A DNA stretch of 64,000 bases from Candidatus Nomurabacteria bacterium (GCA_023898465.1 CP060223.1:928001-992000), one strand, 5' to 3'. Counted from the stretch's first letter, positions 23,129 through 48,034 are shown. Notes: generated by a model not told the origin, from the sequence alone. Made by a program: numbers and translations.

Positions 23129-23185
23129 CTCGTACTTGCCAAATCCCATGTCGTAGCCGAAGCATTGAGCTTCGGCGGCTTCAAT

Positions 23186-23262
23186 TGATAAAAGAAAACC
23201 CCGACCACAGCGCTAGTCCTCGTGCATAGACACGTGGATAGATGTGATCGGGGAAAGTACGG
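23186..23262 (-). terminator. terminator cassette A1 (minus strand; CCCCG…CGGGG stem then UUUUCUUUUAUC), repeated at 23897-23951
   Basis: Minus-strand read: GTACTTTCCCCGATCACA…AGCGCTGTGGTCGGGGTTTTCTTTTATCAATTGAAGC. Confidence 0.55.
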
Positions 23263-23264
23263 AG

Positions 23265-23843
23265 CTACTGGTAGATTGACTTCACCTGACCCCAACTCCT
23301 GCTGAGGGTTGGCACCGGCCCGATTGTACCATAGGTCCGGAAGAGCCAATCATACGGCTTTTCTTCGCCTGCACTGTAGGCGGTGCCGCCAGGGTATTCG
23401 CATCCACCTTCTACCCGTCGTTCGGTGGCCCAACCGTTGTTTGAATGCGAAACAGGATGAAGGTAGTAGGTGGCGCCAGGCTGAATGGTCACACCACCGA
23501 AGTCGAAACTGATCCAGTTGTCCCCGCCCGACTCAACGTCTTGCGTCGCAACAGCCAGAACACTCTCGCCAGGCACCACTGAGTTCTGGAGAAAGAGCGT
23601 CACCGTACCCGCGGCTGGGTAAAAGAACAGCTCAACACCGCACAAGTAGTCCATCGTCGGCGTGAAAGACTGCAACAAACAACTTGAAAGTTCTTCCTCT
23701 GGAGTGCAGTACATACTGTGTCCAAAAGTCGGACCGATGATTGGTTCACAGCTCTGGTCGAGGTCACCGCAGGGTGCTTGCGCATTCGCGCTGCTTGCAC
23801 ACAGCACCACCAAAGCAAAAACGAGGCCACTGAAACGCGACAT
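23265..23843 (-). CDS. secreted hypothetical protein (GC-rich island 1)
   Basis: Strong SD GGGAGGTG precedes the ATG. Signal peptide MSRFSGLVFALVVLCASSANAQA. It carries 6+ Cys, and the GC content is visibly higher than the flanks. Confidence 0.5.
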   Translation of the reverse strand: MSRFSGLVFALVVLCASSANAQAPCGDLDQSCEPIIGPTFGHSMYCTPEEELSSCLLQSFTPTMDYLCGVELFFYPAAGTVTLFLQNSVVPGESVLAVATQDVESGGDNWISFDFGGVTIQPGATYYLHPVSHSNNGWATERRVEGGCEYPGGTAYSAGEEKPYDWLFRTYGTIGPVPTLSRSWGQVKSIYQ

Positions 23844-23896
23844 GAGACACCTCCCACTTTGTTTGTAAGGAGCCTTGATTAGCTTTACTGCTTCAA

Positions 23897-23951
23897 TAAT
23901 AAACCCCGACCACAGCGCTGCGCAAGCACAGCCGTGGCCGGGGAAGTACTG
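23897..23951 (-). terminator. terminator cassette A2 (paralog of A1)
   Basis: Minus-strand read: AGTACTTCCCCGGCCAC…GCAGCGCTGTGGTCGGGGTTTATTATTGAAGC. Confidence 0.55.
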
Positions 23952-24470
23952 TCACCAGCCATCCATAGTGGTTGACTGGTAATGGAAGTTGCGCTCCTCG
24001 ATCATGCCGGGATCAACGAGACGATCTCCATAGTAACGCCAGTAGTAAGCCCAGCGTCTCATATCGTCGAAGCTCAGACGCCTCCCAGTACAAGAGAGAC
24101 ATAGGTCACCGGCCTCCAAGGTGCGGCAACGCAAATCCCAGTAGAGAGAACCCTCCGTATCGAGTGGGTATTGACGCCACTGACCCCTGCACCAAGCAAG
24201 AGCGTCGCGCAGATCACGGTCATTGCGCTGATGCCACTCCTGCACCAACTCAGCTTGGAACTCGGGCTCGAGGGTCACTCCCTGGGAAAGAGTGATGAGA
24301 AGATTCTGGGCGCTCCGATCTCCGCCGGCCTGACCCTGAATCGTTCTCCAGGGCTTGGCCTTCATAAACGCGAGGTCCCAGACCTTCTCTCGGTCGCTCC
24401 GAGCATCAGCCTGAGCTAATGTGGCGAAACCGAACAGCATCAACACTAGGACGGTAACCCGAATACGCAT
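23952..24470 (-). CDS. secreted hypothetical protein (GC-rich island 1)
   Basis: SD AAGGAGGA precedes the ATG. Signal peptide MRIRVTVLVLMLFGFATLAQA. It is Trp/Arg-rich. Confidence 0.5.
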   Translation of the reverse strand: MRIRVTVLVLMLFGFATLAQADARSDREKVWDLAFMKAKPWRTIQGQAGGDRSAQNLLITLSQGVTLEPEFQAELVQEWHQRNDRDLRDALAWCRGQWRQYPLDTEGSLYWDLRCRTLEAGDLCLSCTGRRLSFDDMRRWAYYWRYYGDRLVDPGMIEERNFHYQSTTMDGW

Positions 24471-24586
24471 GCATCTCCTCCTTGTTTCATGTGCGGTTGT
24501 CGATGTACAGCTGCGTACCGTATACTACGGGTAAGCAACCTTGTCAATCCTTATCCTTCGGAATTCAAGTTTATAACATTAGCATT

Positions 24587-24961
24587 ATGGGTAGTTTCAT
24601 CGAAATCAACGACACGCTCCAACTTACTACTGAGCAAGGCTTTCCCTCGGAGCTTACTTTAGAGAAACACTTGAAAAAGGCGTTCACTGTTGAGGATTTT
24701 AAAGACCAAGTCTTTGAATTTCACCACAAGCCGGACCTGCGGATCTACCACCTTAAACCTACTCGAGTATTTCTCGTTCATAACATTGATGGTAAGTGGT
24801 TGTATTGGGGCCACGCCATGATACTTGAAGAAACGCTCCACGCAGAAACGAAAACAACTTCCGGGAAATTTATCATCACAAAAATTTATTCACCCGAGCA
24901 CCAAAGAACAATGAGCACTATCGAAGTAAGCGAAGGCAAGGAGTATCCTTTTGATGAGTAA
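24587..24961 (+). CDS. hypothetical protein (host-like GC)
   Basis: ATG 24587 (MGSFIEIND…). The upstream part of the track ORF runs into the divergent region and is unlikely. Confidence 0.4.
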   Translation: MGSFIEINDTLQLTTEQGFPSELTLEKHLKKAFTVEDFKDQVFEFHHKPDLRIYHLKPTRVFLVHNIDGKWLYWGHAMILEETLHAETKTTSGKFIITKIYSPEHQRTMSTIEVSEGKEYPFDE

Positions 24962-25724
24962 ATCTCTAGTGCTGCAATCGTGGAACATTAACGGTATTCG
25001 GGCTGCAGTGCGTAAGGGCTTTACCGATTATCTCAAAAAAGAAAAACCTGATGTAATTGGTCTGCAGGAAATAAAAATAAGCGAAGAAGCGCGCTTGGCT
25101 ACTGAGTTTGATTTTGGAGGATATGTGGAGCATTGGCACTCAGCAAAAAAACCTGGATATTCCGGCACTGCGGTGTTGGTAAAAAACGGTATCGCACATA
25201 CAGCTCTGCCGAAACTAGCCTGGGACGACGAAGGACGAATTCAAGCCATCGATATGGGGAAGTATATTTTCCTTAATATCTACTTTCCTAATGCCAGTAA
25301 TGACGGCTTGAAGCGCCTAGCCTTTAAGATGCAGTGGAATGAAAAGCTGCTTAACTACCTCAAGCAACTTGAAAAGAAAAAACCACTTGTCATCACGGGT
25401 GACTATAATGTGGCACATGAAGAAATTGACCTAGCTCGACCGAAAGAAAATACCCAGAGCCCGGGCTTCACTCCTGAGGAGCGTACCTGGATGACGAAGT
25501 TTCTCAAAACAGGTTACGTTGATACTTGGCGTGAAGCCAATCCGAAGAAAGTACAATACACCTGGTGGAGTCAGCGCGGTGGCGCTCGCAGCCGAAATGT
25601 AGGCTGGAGGATTGACTACTTTTGTGTGAGTCAAAAATTCCTCAAACAAACAACTAAACCGGCTATCCTCGACCAAGTGATGGGCTCAGATCACTGTCCG
25701 GTTAGTTTAATAGTATCCTCATAG
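24951..25724 (+). CDS. xth: exodeoxyribonuclease III (EEP family)
   Basis: LVLQSWNINGIRAA…VIGLQEIK…GDYNVAHEEIDL…SDHCPV are canonical Xth/APE motifs. Confidence 0.85.
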   Translation: MMSKSLVLQSWNINGIRAAVRKGFTDYLKKEKPDVIGLQEIKISEEARLATEFDFGGYVEHWHSAKKPGYSGTAVLVKNGIAHTALPKLAWDDEGRIQAIDMGKYIFLNIYFPNASNDGLKRLAFKMQWNEKLLNYLKQLEKKKPLVITGDYNVAHEEIDLARPKENTQSPGFTPEERTWMTKFLKTGYVDTWREANPKKVQYTWWSQRGGARSRNVGWRIDYFCVSQKFLKQTTKPAILDQVMGSDHCPVSLIVSS

Positions 25725-25937
25725 CCGCTGCCTCCGGGCTTTGGCGATGATGAAGTAACGTTTATTCATCTCATATTCCATTGACATCTGCTTTGACTCA
25801 AGGTAATTCAGCTAACCATAGAAATACTGTGGTTAGCTCCTTGAAACAAGTCGAATTTGGAGTACTGCAACGCCTGCAGACAGCCAAAATCGACGCTTCC
25901 ATTAGCGTGACACTGAGCACGTTAAGTGGAGGTTATC

Positions 25938-26894
25938 ATGTCACGGCAAGAAACCTGTCCTCGATGTGTAAAGAAAAACGTTTACGGCGCTCCTCGCCTG
26001 AGAATCACCACTGGAATCACTTGGCTTTGTTACATTGCCTTGTTTACGGCGCTCCTCTGTCTCGCCATTTTCCTGGGAGAGCCAAGCTCTTTCAAGAAGA
26101 GCATTGTGCTCATGTTCATCATCGTTAACGCGGCAACTCTGCTAGGCGCCGCTCACGACCTCCTGATACCCAAGCGGGTTTGGATATGGCGCGATAGAGG
26201 AGACAGTGTACATATTCACAAGGAAGCTCCAACGCTTCCCGACTTCGACTTCTGTGGATTCAAACATCCACTCGTTATGGCCTGGATCAACCGGCCGTGG
26301 CGTCGAGCTGACCTAAGTTGGGGTGCTGACACCTCGGGCATGTGTCTTCCTGAAGTCACTATGTCTTGGACACGCAAACGTCCATACTTCATCGTCACCT
26401 ACCACCAGCTTGGGACGATAACGCAGACTATCCGGATTCGGATAACTGAACCATCCACCATGCTCGACACCCTGAACTGGATTCGCTTCGCACCCAACCC
26501 TTTCAACTTTCAGGCGCACCTCGAGTCGCTAGATAATGAGAGGAGAGTCTCCCATACACTACACGAGCAAACAGAGTGGCTTACCTGGCTCAATGAACTC
26601 GTGTGCGCGCTGTACGTGGCTACCGAGCGACGGCGTACCTCGCTTGGCCAATCTCCTCATGGTCAGTTTGTTCACGCTTATCTCGGCCACCTGCTTGGCT
26701 TCATGCGAGTCCACAACATAACAGGAAGGGAAAGCCCAAACCATGCGGTCCGGGTAGAGGATGAGGCAACACAGATCGCCGACACCATCGCGTCAGCTAA
26801 GCAGGAGGGGGGTAAACACTGGGCAGAACGAGCTGCGGACAAGGTTTGGGAAAACCGAAATCGAGCAGCGCTTGAACCCGTCACTGAGTCGTGA
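25938..26894 (+). CDS. hypothetical two-TM membrane protein (GC-rich island 2)
   Basis: SD GTGGAGGT precedes ATG 25938. It has two N-terminal TM helices then a ~230-aa soluble domain, with no recognisable family. Confidence 0.45.
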   Translation: MSRQETCPRCVKKNVYGAPRLRITTGITWLCYIALFTALLCLAIFLGEPSSFKKSIVLMFIIVNAATLLGAAHDLLIPKRVWIWRDRGDSVHIHKEAPTLPDFDFCGFKHPLVMAWINRPWRRADLSWGADTSGMCLPEVTMSWTRKRPYFIVTYHQLGTITQTIRIRITEPSTMLDTLNWIRFAPNPFNFQAHLESLDNERRVSHTLHEQTEWLTWLNELVCALYVATERRRTSLGQSPHGQFVHAYLGHLLGFMRVHNITGRESPNHAVRVEDEATQIADTIASAKQEGGKHWAERAADKVWENRNRAALEPVTES

Positions 26895-26937
26895 CAATTC
26901 TACGCGCCCTGATCTCTAGGAGATTGGGGCGCTTTTT
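26882..26937 (+). terminator. terminator cassette B1 (13-bp stem GCGCCCTGATCTC/GAGATTGGGGCGC then UUUUU), ~54-bp repeat
   Basis: It starts at the stop codon of the upstream gene and is ≥90% identical to 27936-27988. Confidence 0.6.
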
Positions 26938-27100
26938 ACATTGACGAAATTTTCTGCGCTTGCTAGCGTGAGTCCGCATGAGGAAATGCCTCACGTAAGC
27001 TCTTTACAATAGAGCAATCCTGTAACAAGCCGACGCAAGTAAGGCAATTTGCATCCGCTTGTTTCCCGCCTTGAAAAATCAGGGCCGGTAAGGAGTAAAA

Positions 27101-27931
27101 ATGACCTGCGCGAAAGAATCTACCAAAGAGTTGGATCTCACCAACTACCTACCTCTTCCCAGGGGCGGCTTGCGATGGACGGTCTCCACGCTATGCTTTT
27201 CCCTTGCTGCTTTTCTGGGACTCTTCTTGCTCTTCAAAATGGCCGTCAATAGTGAGGGGCTATGGTGGTCACGCCTGTTCTACGGCTGCCTGATTATCGC
27301 CATCTTAGTCTCACTACTTGGATTTTTTGGCTTGAAGCTACTCCGATTCAACTATGCGTATTGGAGAAGAAATGTGAGGGGTTACTACATCTCCTATCCG
27401 CAAATGGATCGAGTGTACTATCGTGGCGAGCGGGCCAAGGAAAGCTTGGCACTCGTAGAGATGCACCTAGCTCTGGGCGGTTGGCGCCATCAACTTGGGA
27501 GCTTTCATCGAGGCTTTGTGGTTACCTCGCGAGACACTTCCGCGGACTCCATCTTTTGGTATGGAGTAAAAATCGTTCAACAATCACCACAACCTTCAGG
27601 GCTTCGCGTGATCGTCTACAGTCACCGGAAAAAGGAACAAACACCACCAATGAGCCTACGGCATGCCAGCGTGCTTATCGGTAAGTTATGCCGCAACCAG
27701 AGCTCCTTGGAACTTGAGTTTGCAACCTTTCTCACCAGTGAAGATGGGCTCGTTAACGCCTGTATTCGCTTGCTTGAACGGATAAAGACAACCTCGCGCT
27801 TATCCTCTACACAAGAAGGTAGGGCCTTTGCTCGAGATCTTGCAACTGCGGCACTCAGTCACTCCATTCGTGGAACTCGGGAACACCGAGAACTTGTGGA
27901 TCTGCAAGAATACTGGGGTCGAACCAGGTAG
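27101..27931 (+). CDS. hypothetical two-TM membrane protein (GC-rich island 2)
   Basis: SD TAAGGAG precedes ATG 27101. It has two TM helices then a soluble domain. Confidence 0.5.
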   Translation: MTCAKESTKELDLTNYLPLPRGGLRWTVSTLCFSLAAFLGLFLLFKMAVNSEGLWWSRLFYGCLIIAILVSLLGFFGLKLLRFNYAYWRRNVRGYYISYPQMDRVYYRGERAKESLALVEMHLALGGWRHQLGSFHRGFVVTSRDTSADSIFWYGVKIVQQSPQPSGLRVIVYSHRKKEQTPPMSLRHASVLIGKLCRNQSSLELEFATFLTSEDGLVNACIRLLERIKTTSRLSSTQEGRAFARDLATAALSHSIRGTREHRELVDLQEYWGRTR

Positions 27932-27935
27932 ACTC

Positions 27936-27988
27936 ACTTCTCAGTGACAATCCTACGCGCCCTGATCTCTAGGAGATTGGGGCGCTTT
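27936..27988 (+). terminator. terminator cassette B2 (paralog of B1)
   Basis: cacttctcagtgacaatcctacgcgccctgatctctaggagattggggcgcttt. Confidence 0.6.
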
Positions 27989-29180
27989 ACTTTATCTGCA
28001 CAAACCGTCGCTTCCCAACCTGAAGCAAGGGTGCCTTTTTTGCATCCAATTCCTTTGCGCCATCTTTCTCTACCTTGCCATCAATACGGACCGCTCCTTG
28101 CTCAAGCATGCGACGTCCTTCTGACTTTGATGGCACCAACTTTGCGCTGACTAAAATTTCTAACAGCGTGCTTTTTTGCTTCAGGCTGAACTCTGGCACC
28201 TCGTCTGGAGTGGCACCTTTTTGAAATACATTTTGAAATTCAGTTGCCGCCTTATCCGCATCGTTTAAGGAATGATATTGTGCAACCAGAGTATGGGCCA
28301 GCTTTGCTTTGACGTCGCGGGGATTATGGCCTGACTTCAAGCCTTGCGCCATTTCCTCGATCTCGGATAATGGTAAACGACTTAGTAAGGTAAAAAACGT
28401 AACAATCTGCTCGTCAGGAATACGCATGAGCTTGCCATACATATCTTTAGGCGTGTCAGAGAGCAATATTGCGTTGCCATAACTCTGACTCATCTTGCGC
28501 TTCCCGTCAGTACCGACGAGCAAGGGCATAATTACTAAATCTTGCGGAGACTGTTTTGCAGCCTCTTGAAGTGGGCGCGCCTGCAGCTCGTTAAATGTTT
28601 GATCACGACCAATCACTGTCACGTCAGCTTTCAACATTACCGAATCATAACCCTGCAAAAGGGGGTAGGTAATTTCGTGCAATCCAATCTCTTTGCCCTC
28701 TTTCATGCGTTGCTGAAACATGTCCCGCTCAAGCATGCGCTGGACGCTCACCTGAGAGAGTAAGTGAAGAAAATCCTCGGCTGACATTTTATCGTACCAC
28801 TCAGCATTTGAACGTACTTCAACCTTCTTAATATCAAGTATTTTACCTAACTGTGTAACATATTTCTTGGCCAGGCGATGTACTTCTGCGGCCGAACGAA
28901 GCGCTCGACGCTCAGCTCGATCAGTTGGATCACCGAAACGGGCCGTAAAACCACCGATTAGGAACTGGATAGTGTGACCTGCTTCTTGAAATTGGCGCAA
29001 CTTTTCATAAATAACTGCGTGACCCAAATGGAGGTCGGCAGTGGTCGGATCAACTCCGTGCTTAATCTTTAGCTTCTTGCCTGAGGCTAGCTTCTTCTCT
29101 AAGGATGCTCGAACTACGACCTCCGCAACGCCTCGGTCAAGTAAATCGCTTCTCATTGATTGGGCCTGTTTTTTCGCCAT
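27987..29180 (-). CDS. tyrS: tyrosine--tRNA ligase
   Basis: Class I HIGH (TADLHLGHAV), KMSQS (KMSKS variant) and a C-terminal S4-like domain. At 397 aa it fits TyrRS rather than TrpRS. Confidence 0.8.
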   Translation of the reverse strand: MAKKQAQSMRSDLLDRGVAEVVVRASLEKKLASGKKLKIKHGVDPTTADLHLGHAVIYEKLRQFQEAGHTIQFLIGGFTARFGDPTDRAERRALRSAAEVHRLAKKYVTQLGKILDIKKVEVRSNAEWYDKMSAEDFLHLLSQVSVQRMLERDMFQQRMKEGKEIGLHEITYPLLQGYDSVMLKADVTVIGRDQTFNELQARPLQEAAKQSPQDLVIMPLLVGTDGKRKMSQSYGNAILLSDTPKDMYGKLMRIPDEQIVTFFTLLSRLPLSEIEEMAQGLKSGHNPRDVKAKLAHTLVAQYHSLNDADKAATEFQNVFQKGATPDEVPEFSLKQKSTLLEILVSAKLVPSKSEGRRMLEQGAVRIDGKVEKDGAKELDAKKAPLLQVGKRRFVQIK

Positions 29181-32458: not shown

Positions 32459-33556
32459 TTATTGCCGAATCGGCATAATAAGATAGGTGTAGGACTCTTT
32501 ATTCGTCGGACGAAATACTCCCGGTCCATCACTATCGGTTAACTCAATCTGCACCTCTTCACTACTCATACTTGCTAATCCATCAAGTAAGTAGCGGTAG
32601 TTAAATAAGATGCTTGTTCCTTCTCCGTCCACCTGTCCTTCGAGGTGGGTAGAGTGCTCACCAACTTGCGTATTGGCCGCCTCGATGGTGACGCCCTTTC
32701 CTGCCACAAAGGCTAGGGTAATATCATTAATCCCAGTTTTGCAAAAAAGACTTGCTGCTCGCACCTGTCGACTCAGCGCCTCTACGGAGAAGGTGGCAGT
32801 GGTAAGATGTTCTTTTGGAATAATCTCTTGGTATTCAGGATATTGACCTTCAATGAGACGAGAAACAAGCTCTATATCGCCAATACGGAAGAGTATCTGG
32901 TTCTCGCCTAATATAATACTCATTTCATTTTCCTCGGTATCTAATATCCGCACCACCTCTTGAAGAGCTCGACTTGGCACAATAACCGCTCGCGTGTCTC
33001 CACTTGCGTTAATGTTTATCTTTCGCTCGGCTAAACGATAGCTATCCGTAGCAGCCAGCACCATGTTGTTATTCTCGATTTTTACATAGATGCCGTTTAT
33101 CTCGGGTCGTGAATTATCATTTGCTGCAGCAAATAACACTTGAGTTAGAGCTTGGCGTAAATCGTTAGTGGCCGCTTTTGTTATGCTTTTTTCTTCCACG
33201 CTTGGGATGACTGGAAATTCATCAGCGGCAATTCCCTTCATGGTTGTAGTTGTTTCACCGGTGGTGATGTGTAAACCCTCTTCACGTAATTCAATATCGA
33301 TCCGTACATTCGATAAAAGATTCACAAAGTCGTGAAGAAGTCGACCCTGTATGGTATACGCGCCTGGTGTTTCTACTTTTGCTCGGACCATGCAAGTAAC
33401 ACCAATTTCAAGATTTGTTGCTGATAGACGTATGCCGGTTGACTCCGCGGTAAGAAGAATATTTCCTAAAATTGGTAAGGCTGCGTTCTTTCCTACAGCT
33501 CGTGACACAATGGTTAATCCACGGATAAGGTTTTCTTGTGTACAGGAGAATTTCAT
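32459..33556 (-). CDS. dnaN: DNA polymerase III beta sliding clamp
   Basis: MKFSCTQENLIRGL… with three-domain length and positioned after dnaA. Confidence 0.85.
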   Translation of the reverse strand: MKFSCTQENLIRGLTIVSRAVGKNAALPILGNILLTAESTGIRLSATNLEIGVTCMVRAKVETPGAYTIQGRLLHDFVNLLSNVRIDIELREEGLHITTGETTTTMKGIAADEFPVIPSVEEKSITKAATNDLRQALTQVLFAAANDNSRPEINGIYVKIENNNMVLAATDSYRLAERKININASGDTRAVIVPSRALQEVVRILDTEENEMSIILGENQILFRIGDIELVSRLIEGQYPEYQEIIPKEHLTTATFSVEALSRQVRAASLFCKTGINDITLAFVAGKGVTIEAANTQVGEHSTHLEGQVDGEGTSILFNYRYLLDGLASMSSEEVQIELTDSDGPGVFRPTNKESYTYLIMPIRQ

Positions 33557-33808
33557 AGTAGATATTTTATATAAAACAGGAAGTAGTAATAGTAAGGGCT
33601 GGGGAAATGTGGATGAATGTGAGAGGGGTAAGTTTTAGGTAAGTAATCCGGGCTTATTTTACTTTTCATTTTTTTCTCTCATGTGTATATCATCGGCATC
33701 CTTATGTGCACGGTGTGTGAGAGGAAAGGGGATGAAAAATGTCATGTACACTTATCCAGTTTTTGTGCGGATACCATCCCCAAAGATATCCCAATACTTA
33801 TCCGCAGC
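33557..33808. promoter_or_regulatory. oriC part 1: DnaA-box cluster plus AT-rich stretch between dnaA and dnaN
   Basis: tgtggatga (33608), ttatccag (33752), tgcggata (33765) and ttatccgca (33798) are 7-8/9 matches to TTATCCACA. The AT-rich tract is ttttacttttcatttttttctctc. Confidence 0.55.
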
Positions 33809-35191
33809 TTATCCTGAGCCGTAGAGACGCTGAAGAATCAAGCGCAGGTTTTCCTGAAGGCGCTCATCCTCACGCAGCTGACCAGAAATTTTTGTTACCG
33901 CATGCATAGCAGTCGTGTGATCCCGATTACCTAACTCATAACCAATACTCGGGAAAGAGCTTTGAAGCTCCTCACGCATAAGATACATAGCAATTTGTCG
34001 GGGGACTACCAATTCTTTCTTACGGCTCACCCCAAGGAGATCAGCGATTTCAAGCTCGTAAAAATCAGCCACTACTTCAATAACCTGCCGCGGAGTAACA
34101 CCACCGCGTTTTGTTGAGCGCGTAACCGAAGAAAGTAGCTCTTTTACTGTATCCATGGTAAGTGATTTACCGCTTAACTCTTGGTAAGCCACCACACGAT
34201 TGAGGGCGCCCTCTAGTTCACGAATATTACTTTGTACATTTGTGCCGATGTAATGCAAAATTTCAGAAGAAAGTAAAAGGTTTTTTTCTCGACACTTCAC
34301 ATCCAGGATAGCAATACGCGTTTCTAGGTCTGGCTGGGCAATATCCGCAATCATTCCCCACTCAAAACGAGAGACAAGACGGTTTTCTAGTGAAGGAATT
34401 GATTTTGGTGGACGATCAGAAGTAATAATAATTTGTTTATTCGCCTGATGGAGCGCATTAAAGGTATGAAAAAACTCTTCTTGAGTTCCTTCCTTACCTG
34501 CCAAGAACTGGATATCGTCTACCAAGAGCACATCAACGCCACGGTAGCGATTTTTAAACTCCTCACCGTTTCCCTTACTAATAGCGCGAATGAATTCATT
34601 AGTAAATTTTTCTGAGGAGACGTAGAGCACACGCTTCGAAGAGTCCTGGGCAAGCACCTGATGGCCAATTGCCTGCATAAGGTGCGTTTTACCTAAGCCA
34701 GCACCCCCATAAATAAACAAAGGGTTATAAATTAACCCAGGTCGTTCTGCTACTGCTACGCAGGCCGCTTTTGCGAGTTCATTGGATTTGCCGGTAATGA
34801 AGGTGCCAAAGGTGTAGCGAGGATTTAAGGTAGCGTTTTCTGGTATCTTAGCGGTGGACGGGGCATCACTCACCACGTTCTGCGCTACGGGCGTCTCAGC
34901 CACGGCTACTTTTTGTAGGTTTTGGGCAGCTGGGGCTTTGCTTGGTGATTCTACTTTATAAGAAACCTGCACCTGAGCAGATCCAAGTGCCGATTTTACA
35001 GCTTTAAGTATTGATTCGTGGTATTTGCTCTCCAACCAGGCCTTAGTAAATGTATTAGGAACCCCGATAACCACACTATTTTCATCTTGGGACGCAACAA
35101 AAGTGTTACTAAACCAAGTAGTGAAATTTGGTCGGCTAATAAGTAGTTCTAATTCGCCTAATACGGCCTGCCAAAGCTGTTCATTGGTCAT
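33809..35191 (-). CDS. dnaA: chromosomal replication initiator DnaA
   Basis: Walker A GGAGLGKTHL, the AAA+ sensor and a C-terminal DnaA-box binding domain (…TAMHAV…). Confidence 0.9.
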   Translation of the reverse strand: MTNEQLWQAVLGELELLISRPNFTTWFSNTFVASQDENSVVIGVPNTFTKAWLESKYHESILKAVKSALGSAQVQVSYKVESPSKAPAAQNLQKVAVAETPVAQNVVSDAPSTAKIPENATLNPRYTFGTFITGKSNELAKAACVAVAERPGLIYNPLFIYGGAGLGKTHLMQAIGHQVLAQDSSKRVLYVSSEKFTNEFIRAISKGNGEEFKNRYRGVDVLLVDDIQFLAGKEGTQEEFFHTFNALHQANKQIIITSDRPPKSIPSLENRLVSRFEWGMIADIAQPDLETRIAILDVKCREKNLLLSSEILHYIGTNVQSNIRELEGALNRVVAYQELSGKSLTMDTVKELLSSVTRSTKRGGVTPRQVIEVVADFYELEIADLLGVSRKKELVVPRQIAMYLMREELQSSFPSIGYELGNRDHTTAMHAVTKISGQLREDERLQENLRLILQRLYGSG

Positions 35192-35374
35192 AAAGCATGG
35201 GGAAATACTCCCAAAAAGACCGTGGATAACTATAGCATAAGCAAAATAAATTGGCTAAAATTAGCCAAAAAAATAGAAAATGTGGATAACTTGTTCATAC
35301 CATGTGTATCAAGCGGTTGAAAAATAGGCGCATTGTACCTTTTTCAAGAAGCTGATAAAATAGCAAAGATTTCT
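35192..35374. promoter_or_regulatory. oriC part 2 / dnaA promoter region with DnaA boxes
   Basis: A perfect box tgtggataa (35281-35289, reverse complement TTATCCACA) and an 8/9 box cgtggataa (35221-35229). Confidence 0.6.
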
Positions 35375-35512
35375 ATGCCTAAGCGTACCTATCAACCAAA
35401 AAAGCGAAAAAGAGCAAAAACACACGGCTTTTTGGCGCGGAAACGAACAAAGACCGGACGACGAGTGGTGCAACGACGCCGACGTAAGGGTCGGGCTCGT
35501 TTAGCGCAATAA
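35375..35512 (+). CDS. rpmH: 50S ribosomal protein L34
   Basis: [45 protein letters not shown]. It falls below the track's length cutoff and was read manually. Confidence 0.9.
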
Positions 35513-35513
35513 A

Positions 35514-35858
35514 ATGTTGCCGGCAGCTGCTCGCCTCCGCAAGGAGCAAGACGTACAACGGGTACGGCGTTTTGGTCGTCAGGCTCGAACTACCCACCTG
35601 GCGGTAAGGGTGGCGAAAAGCTCAGTAAAAGGTCCCCGCCTCACCGTGGTTGTGGCAAAACGGGTAGATAAGCGAGCAACAGTGCGTAATAGTATAAAGC
35701 GAAAAATCAGAGCGCAGCTGCAAGAGCTCTATCCCAAACTTTTAACTCACTGTGATATCCTCATAAGTACCCAGCCCTCAACAAAGAATTGCACAAGCAG
35801 TGATTTGCGGGCTGATCTCGAATTCCTATTTCGACGCTTACGACTTTTTCACTCATGA
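35514..35858 (+). CDS. rnpA: ribonuclease P protein component
   Basis: LRKEQDVQRVRRFG… is basic, ~114 aa, and follows rpmH. Confidence 0.8.
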   Translation: MLPAAARLRKEQDVQRVRRFGRQARTTHLAVRVAKSSVKGPRLTVVVAKRVDKRATVRNSIKRKIRAQLQELYPKLLTHCDILISTQPSTKNCTSSDLRADLEFLFRRLRLFHS

Positions 35859-36100
35859 CGAGTATTAGCATCTTCCTTATACGAGCCTACCAGCGGAGTC
35901 TTTCGCCTGACCATGGATGGTTGCGCGCACGCTATCCTTATGGATACTGCCGATTTCACCCAACCTGTTCTATGTATGCCATTGAAGCTCTTCAGCGGCA
36001 TGGTTTTTTCCGTGGTACATACTTAGCAGTTCGTCGCCTGCTACGTTGTCATCCTTTTCACGAACCTAGTATTGATCCAGTTCCTAAATCACAGCAATGA
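35855..36100 (+). CDS. yidD: membrane protein insertion efficiency factor YidD
   Basis: LIRAYQRSLSP…CRFHPTCSMYAIEAL…HG. Confidence 0.85.
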   Translation: MTSISIFLIRAYQRSLSPDHGWLRARYPYGYCRFHPTCSMYAIEALQRHGFFRGTYLAVRRLLRCHPFHEPSIDPVPKSQQ

Positions 36101-36882
36101 ACATCATCGACATCCTTCTCTTTAATCCACTCTTTAACGGGCTCATTGGTACCTATCATATTTTGCCAGGGCAAGATATGGGAGTGGCGATTATTGTGTT
36201 AACCATAGTAGTGCGTGGGATTTTGGCGTATCCCTCAGCCAAGTCAATCAAAGCTCAACGCGAACTGCAGTTGATCCAGCCAAAACTTGAAGCCCTGAAA
36301 GAGCAGTACAAAGATAATAAGGAACAGATGGGTCAAAAACTCATGGAGTTTTATAAGGAGCACAAAGTAAATCCTTTTTCATCTTGTTTACCAACACTCA
36401 TTCAACTTCCCATAATCTTTGTGTTGTATCGAGTGTTTATTAATGGGCTAGCCCTGGACCCAGAAACCGGCACCTTGGTTGCTCATCAAATTGATCGTTT
36501 GTATGGCTCCTTGCATACTATTTATGCCACAACGCCAATTCACACGACAGCCTTTGGTTTTTTGGATCTCACGGCACCTCATAATATTTTATTAGCCCTA
36601 GTCACTGGCGCCTTGCAGTTTTGGCAATCGAGAATGTTAGTGGCCCGACAAGCGCCAATTAAATCAAAAGGTGCTCGAGACGAAAACATGGCTGCGAGCA
36701 TGAGCAAGCAGATGATGTATATTTTCCCGCTAATCACAGCGTACTTTGCCTATCTCTTCCCAGCCGGACTTGCGTTGTATTGGCTGACCTCTACGCTTTT
36801 CCAAGTTGTGCAGCAGTATATTCTTTTCCGTCGCGTTCATCCATCTAAGGAGCTTGATGACCTCACCGCTTCGCAAACATAG
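36097..36882 (+). CDS. yidC: membrane protein insertase YidC (short, Gram-positive/CPR type)
   Basis: 261 aa with five TM helices and a conserved Arg-containing TM1 (…VRGIL…). It lies in rpmH-rnpA-yidD-yidC synteny. Confidence 0.8.
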   Translation: MNIIDILLFNPLFNGLIGTYHILPGQDMGVAIIVLTIVVRGILAYPSAKSIKAQRELQLIQPKLEALKEQYKDNKEQMGQKLMEFYKEHKVNPFSSCLPTLIQLPIIFVLYRVFINGLALDPETGTLVAHQIDRLYGSLHTIYATTPIHTTAFGFLDLTAPHNILLALVTGALQFWQSRMLVARQAPIKSKGARDENMAASMSKQMMYIFPLITAYFAYLFPAGLALYWLTSTLFQVVQQYILFRRVHPSKELDDLTASQT

Positions 36883-37641: not shown

Positions 37642-38793
37642 ATGGAACTCTCGACCAAGGAGCAAGTTGTTGATGCGCTGCGTTCGCGTGAAAGCATCCT
37701 CATCGTATTGCCAAAAAATCCCAGCCCAGATGCCATAGCTTCTGGGGCGGCCCTGTCTACTATTTTGCGGGCCATGCAAAAAGAAATCCGGATTGTTTCG
37801 AGTGATTTTCAATTTCCTTCCTCACTAGGCTTTTTGCCTGCTCGGCCTGATATCCATACCGACCTGGACGCTGACCGTAAGCTGGTTATTAGTCTCGCTC
37901 TCAAGGAGACCAAACTAGGCGAGCTATCGTATGACGTGCAAGATGACATGTTGAAAATTTTTATTACCCCAAAGGGAAAAGGTTTCCATGAAAAGGATGT
38001 GAAGGCGTCATTAGGAGAATATAACTTTTCACTCATCATCACCCTCGACACACCATCCCTGCAAAGCCTGGGTCCGCTTTTTGAACAAAACGCCGATCTC
38101 TTTTATCAGGTTCCGATTGTAAACATTGATCATCATCCGACAAACGATTCCTTTGGGCAGATTAACTATGTTGATTTAGTAGCGACGTCGACCTCAGAAA
38201 TTGTGCTTGATCTTATTCAAGAGCTAAAACCTGATGTGTTAGATGACGCTATGGCAACAAATTTACTGACTGGAATTATCACAAAGACCCGATGCTTCCG
38301 TAGTCCAAGCGTTACCCCAAAAGCGCTCTCTGTCGCCTCTCATTTAATTGAGATGGGAGCAAAGCGAGAAGATATTGTGCGACATCTTTATCAAACACAT
38401 TCACTCACCGCTCTGAAACTATGGGGACGAGCCTTAGCACGATTAAAAGAGGCGCATCACGGACAGTTTGTCTGGACTATTTTGAATCGCCAGGACTTCC
38501 AAAAATCTGGAGCGGATGCCCGAGCCTTGCACGGAGTAATTGATGAGTTGATTGTAAACATGCCTCGCGCTCGAGTGATTCTAGTAGTCTATGAGGGGGA
38601 AGATGGTCAAATTCATGGTTTGGCCCAGAGCGATAAGCAAATTCGTAATCTTGCCTTGTTTAAAGACTTTCAACCAAGCGGCACAGACGAGTACGCTGAG
38701 TTGCGTTTCCCAGATGAGAGCCTTGAAATTGTGGAAGCAAAAGTAGCAGAGCGAGTCGAAGCATATTTTCGAACGCAAGGACTTCTCTCCTAA
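37642..38793 (+). CDS. nrnA: DHH/DHHA1 phosphoesterase (NrnA-like bifunctional oligoribonuclease/pAp phosphatase)
   Basis: NIDHHPTND (DHH motif), with upstream DxD motifs and a DHHA1-like C-terminus. Confidence 0.7.
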   Translation: MELSTKEQVVDALRSRESILIVLPKNPSPDAIASGAALSTILRAMQKEIRIVSSDFQFPSSLGFLPARPDIHTDLDADRKLVISLALKETKLGELSYDVQDDMLKIFITPKGKGFHEKDVKASLGEYNFSLIITLDTPSLQSLGPLFEQNADLFYQVPIVNIDHHPTNDSFGQINYVDLVATSTSEIVLDLIQELKPDVLDDAMATNLLTGIITKTRCFRSPSVTPKALSVASHLIEMGAKREDIVRHLYQTHSLTALKLWGRALARLKEAHHGQFVWTILNRQDFQKSGADARALHGVIDELIVNMPRARVILVVYEGEDGQIHGLAQSDKQIRNLALFKDFQPSGTDEYAELRFPDESLEIVEAKVAERVEAYFRTQGLLS

Positions 38794-41661: not shown

Positions 41662-44202
41662 TTAACTGCTGCTCAAACTACTTAGTTGTTCCTTCAGGTT
41701 GCTAATATCCTCCTGCGTGGAAGCGCGTAATTCCTCCGGGATACGTGGATTATTGAGCATCGCCTCTTTTTTGGCAATGAGCTGCGTTAAACGCTCTCCT
41801 TCTTTTTCTAACCATTCGGCAAAGGCGGCGACTCGCGGGCGAGGGAAGCTTAATTCCAAGGCCCCGAGCTGAAGCTTGCTCGCATCCTTAGCTGCCGGGC
41901 CAAATGAAATCTTGGTGAGTTTTTCTAAGAGCTCAGTCGCATATCCCGTCTTACTGAGTAAGTGCGCGTGTTCTTCAGTGCTAATTCCGCTATGGGCCTT
42001 AAATGCGCGCAGTGATTGTACGGTTTGTTGGAAGCGTTGGAATTCTTTTTCTGCCTCCAGGTCAATAAAGGTTTTTTGCGGCTGCGGCCAGGCGCTAACA
42101 ATGAGCATTGAGCCCTTGGGATAGAGTTCGCGCCAAATGCGTTCAGTGAAAAAGGGGAGGTAGGGATGGAGCATCTTCAAGATGTGCTCGAGCACGTGTC
42201 GGATGACCGCCGGGTTATTTTCCGTTTTGGCAACTTCTAAATACCAGTCAGCAAATTCATGCCAGGCGAAAGTATATACTTCCTCAGCAGCCGCGCTAAA
42301 ACGATAAGCGTTGAGATGTTCAGTACTTGTTTTAATGCAAGTCTGAAGTCGGGAGAGAATCCATTGGTCAGCCAGACTATGGGCTGCCAAAGTAGTTTCT
42401 TTTTCTTCCACGCCCTGCAAAAGCGCAAAGCGGCTAATATTCCAGAGCTTGTTTACAAAGTTGCGATACGCAGCAATTTTTTGCTCTGATAAACGAGTGT
42501 CATTTCCCGGCGTTGTCCCAATAATGAGGGAGAGTCGTGTGGCGTCAGCGCCATACTTATCAGCCATCTCAAGCGGGTCAATACCATTACCGAGAGACTT
42601 TGACATTTTTCGTCCATGTTCATCACGCACCAGGCCGTGGAGATAGACTGTTTGAAATGGAACCTCTTGTAGGGCATAGGTAGACATGAGAATCATGCGG
42701 GCTACCCAGAAGAAGAGTATGTCATAACCTGTTTCCATGACGCTGGTTGGATGGAAGCGTTTGAGATCCTCAGTCTGCTTTGGCCAACCCAAAGTAGAGA
42801 AGGTCCATAAGCCAGATGAGAACCAGGTATCAAGCGTATCTGATGATTGTTGCCACTCCTTTCCCTTAGGGGCTTTTTCGCCAACATGGATTTCCTTTTG
42901 CTCAGGATTTTTTTCTGATGGACGTTCCCAAACTGGCAAACGATGACCGTACCAAATTTGTCGCGAGATATTCCAATCATGCAGATTTTCCATCCAGTGC
43001 TGGTAAATCTTTTTAAAGCGAGATGGCACGAAAGCTATTTCATCTTGAGTAGCTACCTCTAAAGCTCGCTGCTTCAGGCTTTTTCCATTCAATTTCTTTG
43101 TTGGGGTATCAACACTAATAAACCATTGTTCAGACGGGAGAGGCTCTAGCGCAGTGCCGCAGCGATAACAGGTTGCCAGGTTGTGGTTGTAGTTTTCGTC
43201 AATGTGATCAACCAGTCCTTTTTCTTGAAGAATCTCTACCACCTTCTTTCTCGCTTCTTGTACATCGATGCCAGCATAGGTGCCAGCAGCTTCGGTGAGC
43301 TTGCCTTGTTCATTGATAATTTTTTCGACCGGCAGTTGATATTTTTTAGCCAACTCAAAATCAAGTAGGCTATGACCCGGTGTGATCGTCATTGCACCAC
43401 TGCCAAGTTTCGGATCAGCTGATTCGTCCGCAATCACTCGAGCAGTGATTGGGCCATTGATCCACTCCAGTGCGAATTCTTTATCGATCATATCTCGGTA
43501 GCGCGTATCATCCGGATGAACAATAATTACCTTATCGCCGAATTTCGTTTCTGGACGGGCGGTACCAATAATCACCGGACCGTATTTGAAATAGTAGAAG
43601 GGTGCTTTTTCTTCCTTATACTCGACCTCGTCATCAGCTAAAGTGGATTGACAGCGAGTGCACCAATTTACTACCCGTTGACCACGGTAAATGAGACCGT
43701 CTTCATACATTTGTATAAACATGGTTTGGACGGCCTTGCTTAGACCCTCATCAAGTGTGAAGCGTTCACGGCTCCAATCACAAGAAGCACCGAGTCGTTT
43801 CATCTGTTCGGTAATTTGACCTTGCGATTCTTTTACAAATTTTTCTACCAGCTTGAGAAATTTTTCTCGACCCAAATCGTCCTTAGTTTTTTTTTCAGCC
43901 TTAAGTTTCTTCTCCACAACATTTTGAGTTGCAATTGCAGCATGATCTGTGCCGGGTAACCAGAGCGTTCGTTCACCCTTCATCCGATGATAGCGTACGA
44001 GGGTGTCTTGAAGAGCAATCATCACAGCGTGACCCATATGAAGATTTGCTGTGGTGTTTGGTGGCGGTAAGGCAATCGAAAAAGTAGGGGCACTCTCTGG
44101 TACTTTTAATTTATCTGGATTAAAGGCGCCGGACTTTTCCCACGCTTCGTAAATACCTTTTTCTTCTTCTTTTGGATTGTAGGTTTTGGAGAGCTCTTTC
44201 AT
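41662..44202 (-). CDS. valS: valine--tRNA ligase
   Basis: PPPNTTANLHMGHAV (HIGH), KMSKSLGN, an editing CP1 domain and a C-terminal coiled coil. 846 aa. Confidence 0.85.
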   Translation of the reverse strand: MKELSKTYNPKEEEKGIYEAWEKSGAFNPDKLKVPESAPTFSIALPPPNTTANLHMGHAVMIALQDTLVRYHRMKGERTLWLPGTDHAAIATQNVVEKKLKAEKKTKDDLGREKFLKLVEKFVKESQGQITEQMKRLGASCDWSRERFTLDEGLSKAVQTMFIQMYEDGLIYRGQRVVNWCTRCQSTLADDEVEYKEEKAPFYYFKYGPVIIGTARPETKFGDKVIIVHPDDTRYRDMIDKEFALEWINGPITARVIADESADPKLGSGAMTITPGHSLLDFELAKKYQLPVEKIINEQGKLTEAAGTYAGIDVQEARKKVVEILQEKGLVDHIDENYNHNLATCYRCGTALEPLPSEQWFISVDTPTKKLNGKSLKQRALEVATQDEIAFVPSRFKKIYQHWMENLHDWNISRQIWYGHRLPVWERPSEKNPEQKEIHVGEKAPKGKEWQQSSDTLDTWFSSGLWTFSTLGWPKQTEDLKRFHPTSVMETGYDILFFWVARMILMSTYALQEVPFQTVYLHGLVRDEHGRKMSKSLGNGIDPLEMADKYGADATRLSLIIGTTPGNDTRLSEQKIAAYRNFVNKLWNISRFALLQGVEEKETTLAAHSLADQWILSRLQTCIKTSTEHLNAYRFSAAAEEVYTFAWHEFADWYLEVAKTENNPAVIRHVLEHILKMLHPYLPFFTERIWRELYPKGSMLIVSAWPQPQKTFIDLEAEKEFQRFQQTVQSLRAFKAHSGISTEEHAHLLSKTGYATELLEKLTKISFGPAAKDASKLQLGALELSFPRPRVAAFAEWLEKEGERLTQLIAKKEAMLNNPRIPEELRASTQEDISNLKEQLSSLSSS

Positions 44203-44209
44203 TGGAGAT

Positions 44210-44530
44210 TTTCTTGGATAAATAAAAACGCCTTACTGTTTGTAAGGGTCCACGATGTTGCATCGGGACGGTACCACCTTACTCGCCCTCCGTAGCCTCG
44301 TGCGAAGGAGGGCTTCCGAAGAACTCTTCATTGACGCATGCTGACGGATGCGATCCGGCCAACTTACCTCAGTACCACCTAGGGTACAGGATTCAGTTAG
44401 CAGCTTCCCCAAGGGACACAATGTCTAATACATAGCCAGACAATCTTGGGTTAAGTGCTTTTCGTGAAATGAGAAATAACTGCTTCGATAGTAGGCTTTT
44501 TTCATAAGTCAGTCAAGAACGCTTGACCAA
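44210..44530 (-). promoter_or_regulatory. putative T-box riboswitch leader of valS
   Basis: The minus-strand leader (~330 nt) contains AGUAAGGUGGUACCGUC, which resembles the T-box consensus AGGGUGGNACCGCG. A terminator follows 20 nt downstream, before ATG: ccttacaaacagtaagg then CGUUUUU. The Stem I specifier loop was not resolved. Confidence 0.4.
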
Positions 44531-44597
44531 GTTTTATTATCTACGCTAGGGTCAGAATAGATTTTGCAATGGCTGTTTGACAATGGAGGAAAAAGCG

Positions 44598-44909
44598 ATG
44601 AGCTGCAATCCACGGAATGTGCGGAATCGTCGACGGAATCTGTACGTAGCCCTTGGCCGTTTGGGGTTGCCACCGGATCAGCATCAGGAAGAGAAGCGGA
44701 AGATACGTGATGCCTGTCGTCATGGCAGGGCCTACGTGTTGCCTCCTCGCCGCGGTCGATCCATTTCCAAGCCGGTCTGTCGACCGTGTAATGGGAAGGG
44801 AAAGCGCGACTGTCATCTCTGTAATGGCAGGAGTAGTGGATGCTACTACTGCAATTACACTGGCAAGAAGACTTGCAACGTTTGCATGGGTGAGGGAGTG
44901 ACTACCTAG
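44598..44909 (+). CDS. small protein with four CxxCxGxG repeats (DnaJ-type zinc-finger-like), GC-rich island 3
   Basis: CRPCNGKG, CHLCNGRS, CYYCNYTG, CNVCMGEG. SD GGAGG lies 8 nt before ATG 44598. Confidence 0.4.
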   Translation: MSCNPRNVRNRRRNLYVALGRLGLPPDQHQEEKRKIRDACRHGRAYVLPPRRGRSISKPVCRPCNGKGKRDCHLCNGRSSGCYYCNYTGKKTCNVCMGEGVTT

Positions 44910-44924
44910 GAGTAAGGAGCTTCG

Positions 44925-45176
44925 ATGTCACAGAAGCGGCGTGGGCACTTGCTCATGCAAACGAACGTGGTAGGACTTGGACTTATCGCGATTTGGTATA
45001 CACCAGTTGGAAAAAGTCGACACGAGCTTGTTTCCTGGACAGTTACTTTTTCCTGTGGAGAAGTGTGTAGAATCAGAGGCCGCAGCCAGCACGAAATCAT
45101 AGCAACGTCTCGTCGTGAACACGGTGAATGTCGTCTGGGGTCTGCCTGTAGAGTGATTGCCTGCGACGAGCTGTGA
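44925..45176 (+). CDS. hypothetical small protein (GC-rich island 3)
   Basis: Good SD AAGGAG, then 5 nt, then the ATG. It has a hydrophobic N-terminal segment. Confidence 0.3.
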   Translation: MSQKRRGHLLMQTNVVGLGLIAIWYTPVGKSRHELVSWTVTFSCGEVCRIRGRSQHEIIATSRREHGECRLGSACRVIACDEL

Positions 45177-45458
45177 CACTTCCTTGCTCGGTTGTTGTCC
45201 GAGGCTGCTTGTCGTATACTAGATCTAGCGCCTCTCTTGCGAGGCATCAACAGAGCACCTTCACATACAGAAGGAGGATCTCATGAAGATCAGGTCTCCC
45301 GTGAGCGTTGTCGTATCTCCGACTGCCGATGTTGATCGGCTCAACGCCTCCGGGAAGGAGGTGGTCCTAATCGAGAGGTCCTAGGAGGCGTTGTGGGTTT
45401 CTGACGGCCATACTGTGTGTGGCCGTCGTTTCTTTGCCGCAGAATCCAGGGAGGGAGT

Positions 45459-45635
45459 ATGTCGAAGGAGGAATCGAATTCTGCCCTAGGGGACTTTGTC
45501 TCAACCGTGCTGGGTTTCCTCGGTGCGCTCGCAGTCATGTTTGCTGCGTTGCTCGGCGCCCTGCTTCTCGCCTTCGTGAAAACACCGGATCTCGATCCAT
45601 ATGATGATCGTGGTCCGGTCTCTCGACAGCATTGA
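45459..45635 (+). CDS. hypothetical small membrane protein (GC-rich island 3)
   Basis: GGGAGGGAG precedes ATG 45459. It has one TM helix (VLGFLGALAVMFAALLGALLLAFV). Confidence 0.3.
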   Translation: MSKEESNSALGDFVSTVLGFLGALAVMFAALLGALLLAFVKTPDLDPYDDRGPVSRQH

Positions 45636-45673
45636 CTGACATCCACCTCTCTAGGCAACTAGGGAGGTTTTGC

Positions 45674-47298: not shown

Positions 47299-47396
47299 GC
47301 TGATATTGTAGCACGCGCATTGACATTTTCATGTTTTTTGCTACAGTAGCCTGTCGTTCATTACACTTGAATAGTCAGGAAAGGGAGGGCTATCAC

Positions 47397-47726
47397 ATGT
47401 TTTCGGTCTGGAATCTCGTCTGGGTGATACTCCTTGGATGCGTCTTTCTCTACTTCGGTCCTGTGCGGTTGCGGCGGCGTCGCAATAAGGTACGGCGAGA
47501 CGTGCTTGGGATGTTGTCGAAAAGGACCGTGCGAACGACAAGGCCTGAGCTGGTGTCGATGGTACGAGAAAGGCACAAGCATCCAACAGCTTTGATCGAA
47601 GAAGCGATTCGGGATCTCGTTAATCAGGGCAAGATTCTCAAACTCTCCTTCTCTGAGGGTTCGCGCAGCTACACGAACTACGTGATAGCTCAGCGAGACA
47701 GCTCGGAAGAAGGTCGTTCCCCTTAG
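47397..47726 (+). CDS. hypothetical N-terminally anchored small protein (GC-rich island 4)
   Basis: TM helix VWNLVWVILLGCVFLYF followed by an Arg-rich soluble part. Confidence 0.35.
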   Translation: MFSVWNLVWVILLGCVFLYFGPVRLRRRRNKVRRDVLGMLSKRTVRTTRPELVSMVRERHKHPTALIEEAIRDLVNQGKILKLSFSEGSRSYTNYVIAQRDSSEEGRSP

Positions 47727-47734
47727 GTTTCGAC

Positions 47735-48034
47735 GTGAGAGGAGACGAAGTGCACGAGGCGCATATTCATGTGACTTGCTCCACAGATGAGCATGATCGC
47801 ACGAAGGACTTTTTTGAAGATCACATCGCTGATGTGGTCGATGGCTACCGAGGCGCGGGAGCAGATACCCAGATTGAAGCTGAAGGAATGATTCGGGTGA
47901 GTTTCAACTTTCCTTCAGTGGAGATGCGGGAACGTTTTTGTCGGATGGAACAACGAGCATTGAGCTTGATGCTTCGGCATGCAGGAATCAATGCGAGTTG
48001 CAGATTGTGTGCAGACGAATGCACGCAAGGATAG
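47735..48034 (+). CDS. hypothetical protein (GC-rich island 4); GTG start, alternatively GTG 47750
   Basis: The ORF has GAGAGGAG upstream of the second GTG. No family was recognised. Confidence 0.3.
   Translation: MRGDEVHEAHIHVTCSTDEHDRTKDFFEDHIADVVDGYRGAGADTQIEAEGMIRVSFNFPSVEMRERFCRMEQRALSLMLRHAGINASCRLCADECTQG

Follow-up and report, generated by a model that had tools for sequence, protein, structure and literature searches.

GC-rich islets flanking xth on a Patescibacteria chromosome: candidate horizontally acquired single-gene units with repeated predicted terminators

The subject of this work is a 64-kb stretch of a chromosome labeled Candidatus Nomurabacteria (CP060223.1, positions 928001-992000; hereafter, the window), in which two GC-rich islets flank the xth gene. 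Each islet carries two genes for exported or membrane proteins, and each of these genes is followed by a member of a repeated hairpin family, namely T1 in islet 1 and T2 in islet 2. The reading that we favor, at about even odds (a probability of roughly 0.5), is that the islets are horizontally acquired, moron-like single-gene units with family-type terminators, and the best-supported picture of their setting is one in which the units were inserted between housekeeping genes without disrupting them. The chromosome, which is that of a member of the Patescibacteria, is closed, of about 1.08 Mb and derived from a single contig of 1,082,586 nt. Its window includes dnaA, dnaN, rnpA, yidC, tyrS, polA, a PilB-type ATPase and pilin-like genes. 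The islet proteins are GenBank entries of Candidatus Nomurabacteria bacterium (locus tags H6760_04750-04775), and the relatives of xth recovered in a GTDB search are from Parcubacteria, Falkowbacteria and Patescibacteria metagenome-assembled genomes (MAGs).

That both segments are compositionally foreign is supported by their GC content and codon usage and, for the first, by tetranucleotide composition. Islet 1 (23131-24480), which runs from the stop codon of a galT-like gene to the promoter region of the sm124-xth operon, has a GC content of 0.553 (peak 0.58) against a background of 0.467 (window mean 0.470), a value reached by 0.2% of the same-size segments outside the islets. Islet 2 (25725-27990), from the stop codon of xth to that of tyrS, has a GC content of 0.513 (peak 0.555), which 3% of the background segments reach. 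The sm124-xth operon that divides them (24587-25724, plus strand) is of native composition (GC 0.442); the stop codon of sm124 overlaps the start of xth, whose product matches PF03372 (1.7e-29). The original prediction, made without database searches, had placed both islets at 55-60% GC by eye; this holds for islet 1 and was an overstatement for islet 2. Sliding-window GC profiles bear out the GC-richness of both, and the tetranucleotide distance of islet 1 from the core genes is z = 3.9. The shift in the islet genes is at synonymous sites: the GC content at third codon positions (GC3) is 0.61 in P192, 0.64 in P172, 0.58 in P318 and 0.54 in P276, against 0.36-0.50 in core genes. In the same vein, the codon adaptation of the four genes is 2.8-6.1 standard deviations below that of the core set. 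Two further islets of like composition, at about 44.5-45.7 kb and 47.3-49.35 kb, contain small uncharacterized genes and indicate that GC-rich islets are recurrent in this genome. Counting the xth-flanking pair, there are at least four small islets of foreign composition; the pair itself occupies the gaps that separate the housekeeping genes galT-like, sm124-xth and tyrS.

The two genes of islet 1, P192 (23265-23843) and P172 (23952-24470), are on the minus strand and encode proteins of 192 and 172 aa with signal-peptide-like N-terminal segments. Those of islet 2 are on the plus strand: P318 (25938-26894) encodes a protein with an N-terminal CPRC motif, two transmembrane-like segments (residues 23-52 and 51-77) and a soluble domain of about 240 aa, and P276 (27101-27931), which has a T2 copy on either side, combines two transmembrane helices with a soluble domain of about 190 aa. 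A Shine-Dalgarno-like GGAGG or AAGGAG lies 6-9 nt ahead of the start codon in all four genes. The coordinates and these motifs confirm the two signal-peptide genes with strong Shine-Dalgarno sequences that had been proposed for islet 1. The description of the islet 2 genes, two transmembrane helices followed by a soluble domain, is also upheld for both, except that P318, called from the ATG at 25938, replaces the 322-aa form that begins at an upstream GTG (25926). Neither tyrS nor this 322-aa form was matched when looked up exactly, the gene caller having used other start codons. For the islet genes, the Logan gene caller made the same calls in two other samples. The GenBank version of P276 is a 230-aa protein (USN53440.1) that is missing the first transmembrane helix; the Logan assembly uses the 276-aa start, which has AAGGAG 7 nt upstream.

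As had been suggested from the sequence alone, the coding sequences within each islet are unrelated: BLASTP detects no relationship between P192 and P172 or between P318 and P276, and shuffle-tested local alignments give z-scores of 0.5 and -0.2. Hidden paralogy of the partner proteins, considered as a separate candidate, was rejected on these shuffle tests. P318 is an ORFan, with only a self match among 5.8 billion proteins and no match in Pfam, PHROGs, NCBIfam, PADLOC or phage sequences. P172 and P276 likewise have no match in Pfam, PHROG, NCBIfam, PADLOC, phage or plasmid (tblastn) or IMG/VR sequences. P172 is a singleton cluster (USN53436.1) that is not a member of the P192 family and to which no fold could be assigned, its single-sequence AlphaFold2 (AF2) model being poor and uninformative (pLDDT, the predicted local distance difference test score, of 45).

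P192 is the exception in having a detectable family. A word-indexed (k-mer) protein search found only the protein itself, and an exhaustive HMMER search recovered 103 remote homologs, the best of them 45% identical. Members of this family combine a signal peptide with a domain of some 120 aa and an interchangeable C-terminal anchor, which may be PEP-CTERM, IPTL-CTERM, an archaeal-type transmembrane tail or, as in P192, a terminal (S/T)WGx(I/V)KxxYR motif (SWGQVKSIYQ in P192 itself). The DUF4082 family (PF13313) is matched weakly by six of the 31 aligned homologs (best E = 3e-5), whereas P192 falls below the Pfam threshold and likewise has no match in PHROG, NCBIfam or PADLOC. The AF2 model built with the family alignment is confident (pLDDT 85) and presents an all-beta jelly-roll sandwich, for which a search of the PDB with the model returned only generic structural neighbors (TM-score < 0.5) and one with the family profile returned no match. 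We therefore describe P192, on the strength of the model, as a probable divergent DUF4082-like secreted beta-sandwich protein: it resembles DUF4082 proteins in the partial matches of its homologs, the predicted fold and the surface sorting signals of the family, and differs from them in its sub-threshold score and in ending in (S/T)WGx(I/V)KxxY(R/Q), which is not a known sorting signal. One family member is on a contig of 66% GC that clearly does not belong to the candidate phyla radiation (CPR), and the spread of the family over non-CPR organisms is consistent with the import of P192. The terminal TP..(S/T)WGx(I/V)KxxYR-COOH of the family occupies the place that PEP-CTERM, IPTL-CTERM and archaeal-type transmembrane anchors hold in other members; from this position, it may be a previously unrecognized C-terminal sorting or anchoring signal. 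Taken by sequence comparison, with P318 an ORFan and the nearest relative of P192 only 45% identical, the four islet genes appear to lie outside the conserved core of the lineage.

The repeats that follow these unrelated genes are of two classes. In islet 1, T1a (23178-23260, minus strand) is an 83-nt unit that begins 4 nt past the P192 stop codon, and T1b (23890-23949, minus strand) is a 60-nt unit that begins 2 nt past that of P172. They have in common GTACTT(T)CCCCG, AGCGCTGTGGTCGGGGTTT and ATTGAAGC, differ in their interiors and are identical at 54 of the 60 T1b positions with 23 nt of insertions allowed. Their 5' arms, CCCCGATCACA and CCCCGGCCACG, respectively, are different, and both pair by means of wobble pairs with an identical 3' arm. 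The T1a hairpin (-34.6 kcal/mol, z = -3.6) is followed by UUUUCUUUU and the T1b hairpin (-36.8 kcal/mol, z = -4.9) by UUUAUUAUU. A third member of the class, T3 (48674-48739, plus strand), lies 25 kb away, downstream of P208 (48047-48673), a GC-rich and unrelated gene; its hairpin (-39 kcal/mol, z = -6.5) also leads into UUUUCUUUU, and it shares with T1a a 19-nt tail, CGGGGTTTTCTTTTATCAA, and a post-stop CTCCG. The class as defined by CCCCG...CGGGGTTT has these three sites only in the window, and the two matches of this pattern in 1.3 Mb of other loci are not hairpin-like. With T3 related to T1a across 25 kb, the terminators are most likely carried along by a shared pool of genes rather than being fixed chromosomal modules.

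In islet 2, T2a (26891-26935) and T2b (27944-27988), both on the plus strand, are 45-nt units that are identical at 44 positions. Each comprises an unpaired 14-nt 5' arm, GTGACAATYCTAC, conserved at 13 positions, and a 13-bp stem with a 3-nt loop (26904-26932 in T2a), of which eight pairs are GC and two are G·U, followed by TTTTT or TTTACTTTAT. The repeat and its 13-bp stem are thus as first described, with the length corrected from 54 to 45 nt. The T2a hairpin has a predicted energy of -29.5 kcal/mol (z = -4.8). Outside the 45 nt the flanks of the two copies have no significant similarity, the homology ending at the unit edges, which makes T2 a discrete unit; the TGA stop codon of P318 is within T2a, and T2b runs with its last T residues into the stop codon (27987-27989) of tyrS, a convergent gene. 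Dinucleotide shuffles of the window did not produce two copies of either the T1 or the T2 repeat. The T2 pair is 98% identical, the unpaired arm included, which speaks for a recent copy or gene conversion; the former could have accompanied the addition of the second unit, and the latter could have acted between copies 1 kb apart. An 11-7-11 reading of the T2 palindrome as a Xer/dif-like site was dropped because T2 appears to be without the ATAA...TTAT core of dif.

Across all five units the hairpins range from -26 to -39 kcal/mol (z from -3.6 to -6.5) and give way to U-rich tracts, and the units start 0-12 nt past the stop codons of P192, P172, P318, P276 and P208 in the sense orientation. Within the 64 kb, each of the five copies stands behind a GC-rich islet gene; core genes have none, their terminators being unrelated and shorter. 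Owing to the two G·U pairs of its stem, the sense fold of T2 is far more stable than the antisense fold (-29.5 versus -18.7 kcal/mol), which at T2b is on the sense strand for tyrS and is devoid of a U-tract. This asymmetry and the wobble-paired 5' arms of T1a and T1b indicate that T1 and T2 belong to the islet genes rather than being fixed chromosomal modules of galT or tyrS, and, together with the G·U pairs, the better sense-strand fold argues for RNA terminators as opposed to DNA recombination sites. The conserved hairpin-plus-U-tract element reported after each islet 1 gene is real, and the interpretation of T1 and T2 as predicted Rho-independent terminators of self-contained islet units, acting at the RNA level, is well supported in silico. 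An Rfam scan of the region and the window found no match. The proposal that genes had been replaced, cassette-style, upstream of a fixed terminator module is not borne out, given that the G·U-containing sense-strand folds tie the units to the islet genes and that attC cores are absent.

The distribution of the copies also bears on the view that T1 and T2 are mobile palindromic elements, akin to the repetitive extragenic palindromes and bacterial interspersed mosaic elements (REP/BIME) or to miniature inverted-repeat transposable elements (MITEs), which were copied independently of genes and became terminators secondarily. REP/BIME of proteobacteria are palindromic elements mobilized by the Y1 transposases called RAYTs (REP-associated tyrosine transposases). 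Like T1 and T2, they include imperfect palindromes of 30-45 nt placed just downstream of genes and repeated after unrelated ones, serve at times as terminators or mRNA stabilizers, and have, as T2 does, a short conserved unpaired arm beside the stem. This view would further accommodate the sharply bounded units with conserved ends and variable interiors, the conserved arm 5' of the T2 stem, the three T1-class copies spread over 25 kb, and the position of the P318 and tyrS stop codons at the unit edges. Against this, all five copies are in the sense orientation after GC-rich islet genes and none is behind a core gene in 64 kb, there are just two or three copies per family, and the T2 arm has CTAC 5' of the stem rather than the GTAG-5' arrangement of REP. 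No direct repeats of at least 8 nt that would mark a target-site duplication occur at the islet boundaries, and no integrase, transposase or Y1/RAYT domains were found in the tested open reading frames (ORFs) of the window or in the Logan annotation of the overlapping contigs, in agreement with the first reading of the sequence, which had noted no integrase or transposase.

Nor are the repeats seen at large. In the part of the genome read for copy counts, about 70 kb made up of the window and a flank of about 5.4 kb reached from proteins at its edges, there are three T1-class and two T2 copies and none in the 5.4-kb flank. Neither T1 nor T2 has copies in IMG/VR or in 1.39 Mb of related loci; the T1 tail has one IMG/VR match, to an ordinary phage terminator, as expected by chance for a 19-mer in such a collection. 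In the JGI metagenomes, a degenerate form of the T2 hairpin finds one unrelated perfect-palindrome terminator lacking the 5' arm. A mobile terminator-like element, as originally entertained, is therefore not borne out, there being no target-site duplication and no copy in viral contigs, JGI metagenomes or the 1.39 Mb of related loci, and we consider gene-independent copying of palindromes rather unlikely.

Descent in place has also to be weighed, with a gene and its terminator duplicated locally in tandem, the coding parts having diverged or one of them having been replaced, and the terminators having been kept by selection or gene conversion; the islet genes would then be native, fast-evolving surface proteins. 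The similar build of P318 and P276 (a short N-terminus, two transmembrane segments and a soluble domain), the similar sizes of the signal-peptide proteins P192 and P172, and the direct, adjacent arrangement of the repeats all fit such a history. The absence of any protein similarity (z = 0.5 and -0.2) is hard to reconcile with T2 copies that are 98% identical even at unpaired positions, divergence alone does not explain a GC3 that exceeds that of the core by 0.1-0.2, and P192 has a family of its own to which P172 does not belong. We accordingly hold local duplication to be improbable.

The arrangement of unrelated ORFs in the same orientation, each with a structured repeat that has conserved ends and a variable center, recalls the integron-like cassette arrays known as CALIN (clusters of attC sites lacking integron integrases), with T1 and T2 as attC-type sites and a recombinase encoded elsewhere. 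An attC site is an imperfect palindrome of 57-141 nt between R'' and R' core sites, and T1, at 60-83 nt, is within this range, while T2 is only 45 nt. The core motifs R'' (RYYYAAC) and R' (GTTRRRY) are absent from both strands of the stretches of about 150-200 nt around all five units, and no tyrosine recombinase IntI is found among the scanned ORFs of the window or the flanking Logan contigs. Moreover, G·U (G·T) pairs and U-tracts imply a structure formed by RNA and not by folded single-stranded DNA, and each islet gene has its own Shine-Dalgarno sequence and likely promoter, so that the islets depart from integrons and CALIN in both recombination sites and expression signals. This explanation is largely refuted.

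The islets could, in principle, be an artefact of assembly or binning in which GC-rich pieces of another organism were joined to the MAG at short repeats. Short-read Logan contigs do end exactly at both T2 copies, with P276 as a separate 1077-nt contig bounded by repeats; a 45-nt repeat would itself cause such breaks, and the linkage across T2 thus rests on the original long contig. On the other side, two independent assemblies of other samples (Logan L001 and L002) carry galT, P192, P172, both T1 units, sm124 and xth without a break, L001 also joins xth to P318, the P276 piece is in the same sample as the remaining pieces, and the source sequence is one contig of 1,082,586 nt. An artefact is accordingly very improbable.

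The closest available relatives of xth share no synteny with the window. The 80 GTDB species representatives with xth relatives have identities of at most 63% and no neighbors in common, and the five closest xth homologs among the 5.8 billion proteins are 68-81% identical. The contigs of three such homologs (L083, L084 and L086; 72-81% identical, with values of 81, 78 and 72%) have a GC content of 52-56% and wholly different neighbors. Either gene order in this clade has been extensively reshuffled or it is xth that moves; the GC content of the islets resembles that of these three contigs.

Under the reading of the islets as acquired, moron-like units, each islet would consist of two self-contained units, composed of a promoter-like TTGAC(A/G)-17-TAnnnn, a Shine-Dalgarno sequence, an ORF for an exported or membrane protein and a stable terminator. 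The promoter-like part is a by-eye assignment, with TTGACA-17-TAATTC before P318, TTGACG-17-TAGCGT before P276 and TTGACA-17-TATACG before P172 as candidates. The likely job of the terminator would be to shield convergent or neighboring core genes from read-through. Their gain would have involved no dedicated recombinase, DNA uptake and recombination being the simplest route. Their source would be a pool of GC-richer genes, unrelated to one another and ending in terminators of common families, as suggested by T1a, T1b and T3, which have like ends and unlike interiors. Several points weigh against this account. No donor of the islet genes was found, and imported genes tend to exceed the receiving genome in AT more often than in GC. 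None of the close relatives compared keeps the gene order of the window, and a recent insertion is therefore read from composition alone. A consensus promoter scan upstream of the islet genes called none at threshold, the copy number of T1 and T2 is known for only about 70 kb of the 1.08-Mb genome, and the conservation of the unpaired T2 5' arm (13/14) is unexplained by terminator function alone.

This last point is among those that a bolder proposal would cover, namely that T1 and T2 are the handles of an integrase-independent cassette system in CPR bacteria. Surface-protein genes would circulate as modules of Shine-Dalgarno sequence, ORF and terminator and be swapped into intergenic gaps by uptake and recombination, with homologous or short-homology recombination taking place at the stereotyped terminators. 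A terminator that doubled as a recombination anchor would explain both the conserved T2 arm and the direct repeats that are found on both sides of the distal genes, P192 and P276. These direct repeats could mediate loss or exchange of the two genes. We give this proposal a slender chance of being correct; a cassette or mobile-terminator mechanism is possible and unproven.

The acquired, moron-like units that we favor can be compared with two described classes of elements. A moron is a unit with its own promoter and terminator and a GC content unlike that of its neighbors (PMC3594210). Like phage morons, the islets consist of single-gene units of divergent GC content with their own terminator and probably their own promoter, wedged between conserved genes that are left undisrupted and with no recombinase attached. 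Unlike them, they are on a Patescibacteria chromosome (with dnaA, dnaN, tyrS and polA) whose 64-kb window has no phage genes, and near-identical terminators on adjacent unrelated units neither define morons nor are often reported for them; the resemblance is thus one of function and not of membership. Genomic islands have been documented in Patescibacteria (PMC12455944), and the islets are comparable to these in their atypical composition, their accessory or hypothetical genes and their occurrence in a streamlined CPR genome. They are, in contrast, far smaller (1.3-2.3 kb, with two genes each), with neither mobility genes nor a tRNA anchor. The islets would therefore represent a known kind of small-scale gene acquisition, of which the unusual part is the repeated terminator signature.

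Several other features of the window deserve mention. The two further GC-rich islets, at 44460-45660 and 47300-49350, are of 52-54% GC. The former includes P110 (44577-44909), with four DnaJ-type CxxCxGxG motifs, and a 58-aa transmembrane peptide (45459-45636). In the latter, P109, P99 and P208 (47397-48673) form an apparent operon, and P185 (48779-49336, minus strand) is a DUF218 protein. P208, which has no match in Pfam, PDB or PHROG, has a signal peptide and a C-terminal ...GHIELAFKF, an aromatic-terminal strand that resembles an outer-membrane beta-barrel signature, which is unexpected in a CPR bacterium that presumably has one membrane. A cluster of dnaN, dnaA, rnpA, yidD and yidC at 32459-36882 suggests that the replication origin is probably within the window, and the islets are 6-15 kb from this presumed origin. 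At 3365-4712 there are three tandem diverged copies of a small gene (82-100% identical over 64-260 nt), where an overlapping Logan contig annotates T4SS_pilin-like genes. A GC-rich, apparently structured leader of 250 nt (44203-44450) precedes an 846-aa gene (41662-44202, minus strand), probably valS; it is like a T-box or another leader and matches no Rfam family at threshold. Finally, ARAGORN calls an 85-nt tRNA-Met (38578-38662) within the 3' part of an ORF of the DHH family (37642-38793), where Rfam finds no tRNA, a conflict that makes either the tRNA call or the end of the DHH ORF doubtful.

CPR bacteria or Patescibacteria have tiny genomes, depend on hosts and possess few classical mobile elements, so that the ways in which they come by accessory surface genes are poorly understood. 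The islets are compact, presumably self-insulated units for exported or membrane proteins, placed beside essential genes and near dnaA-dnaN (32.4-35.2 kb) with no recombinase nearby. Shared terminators that are more than a by-product would suggest that gene cassettes can be exchanged by a simple route without a recombinase. If they are a by-product, the islets would reflect ordinary small-scale horizontal acquisition, and the four proteins would be candidates for the surface interaction between symbiont and host.

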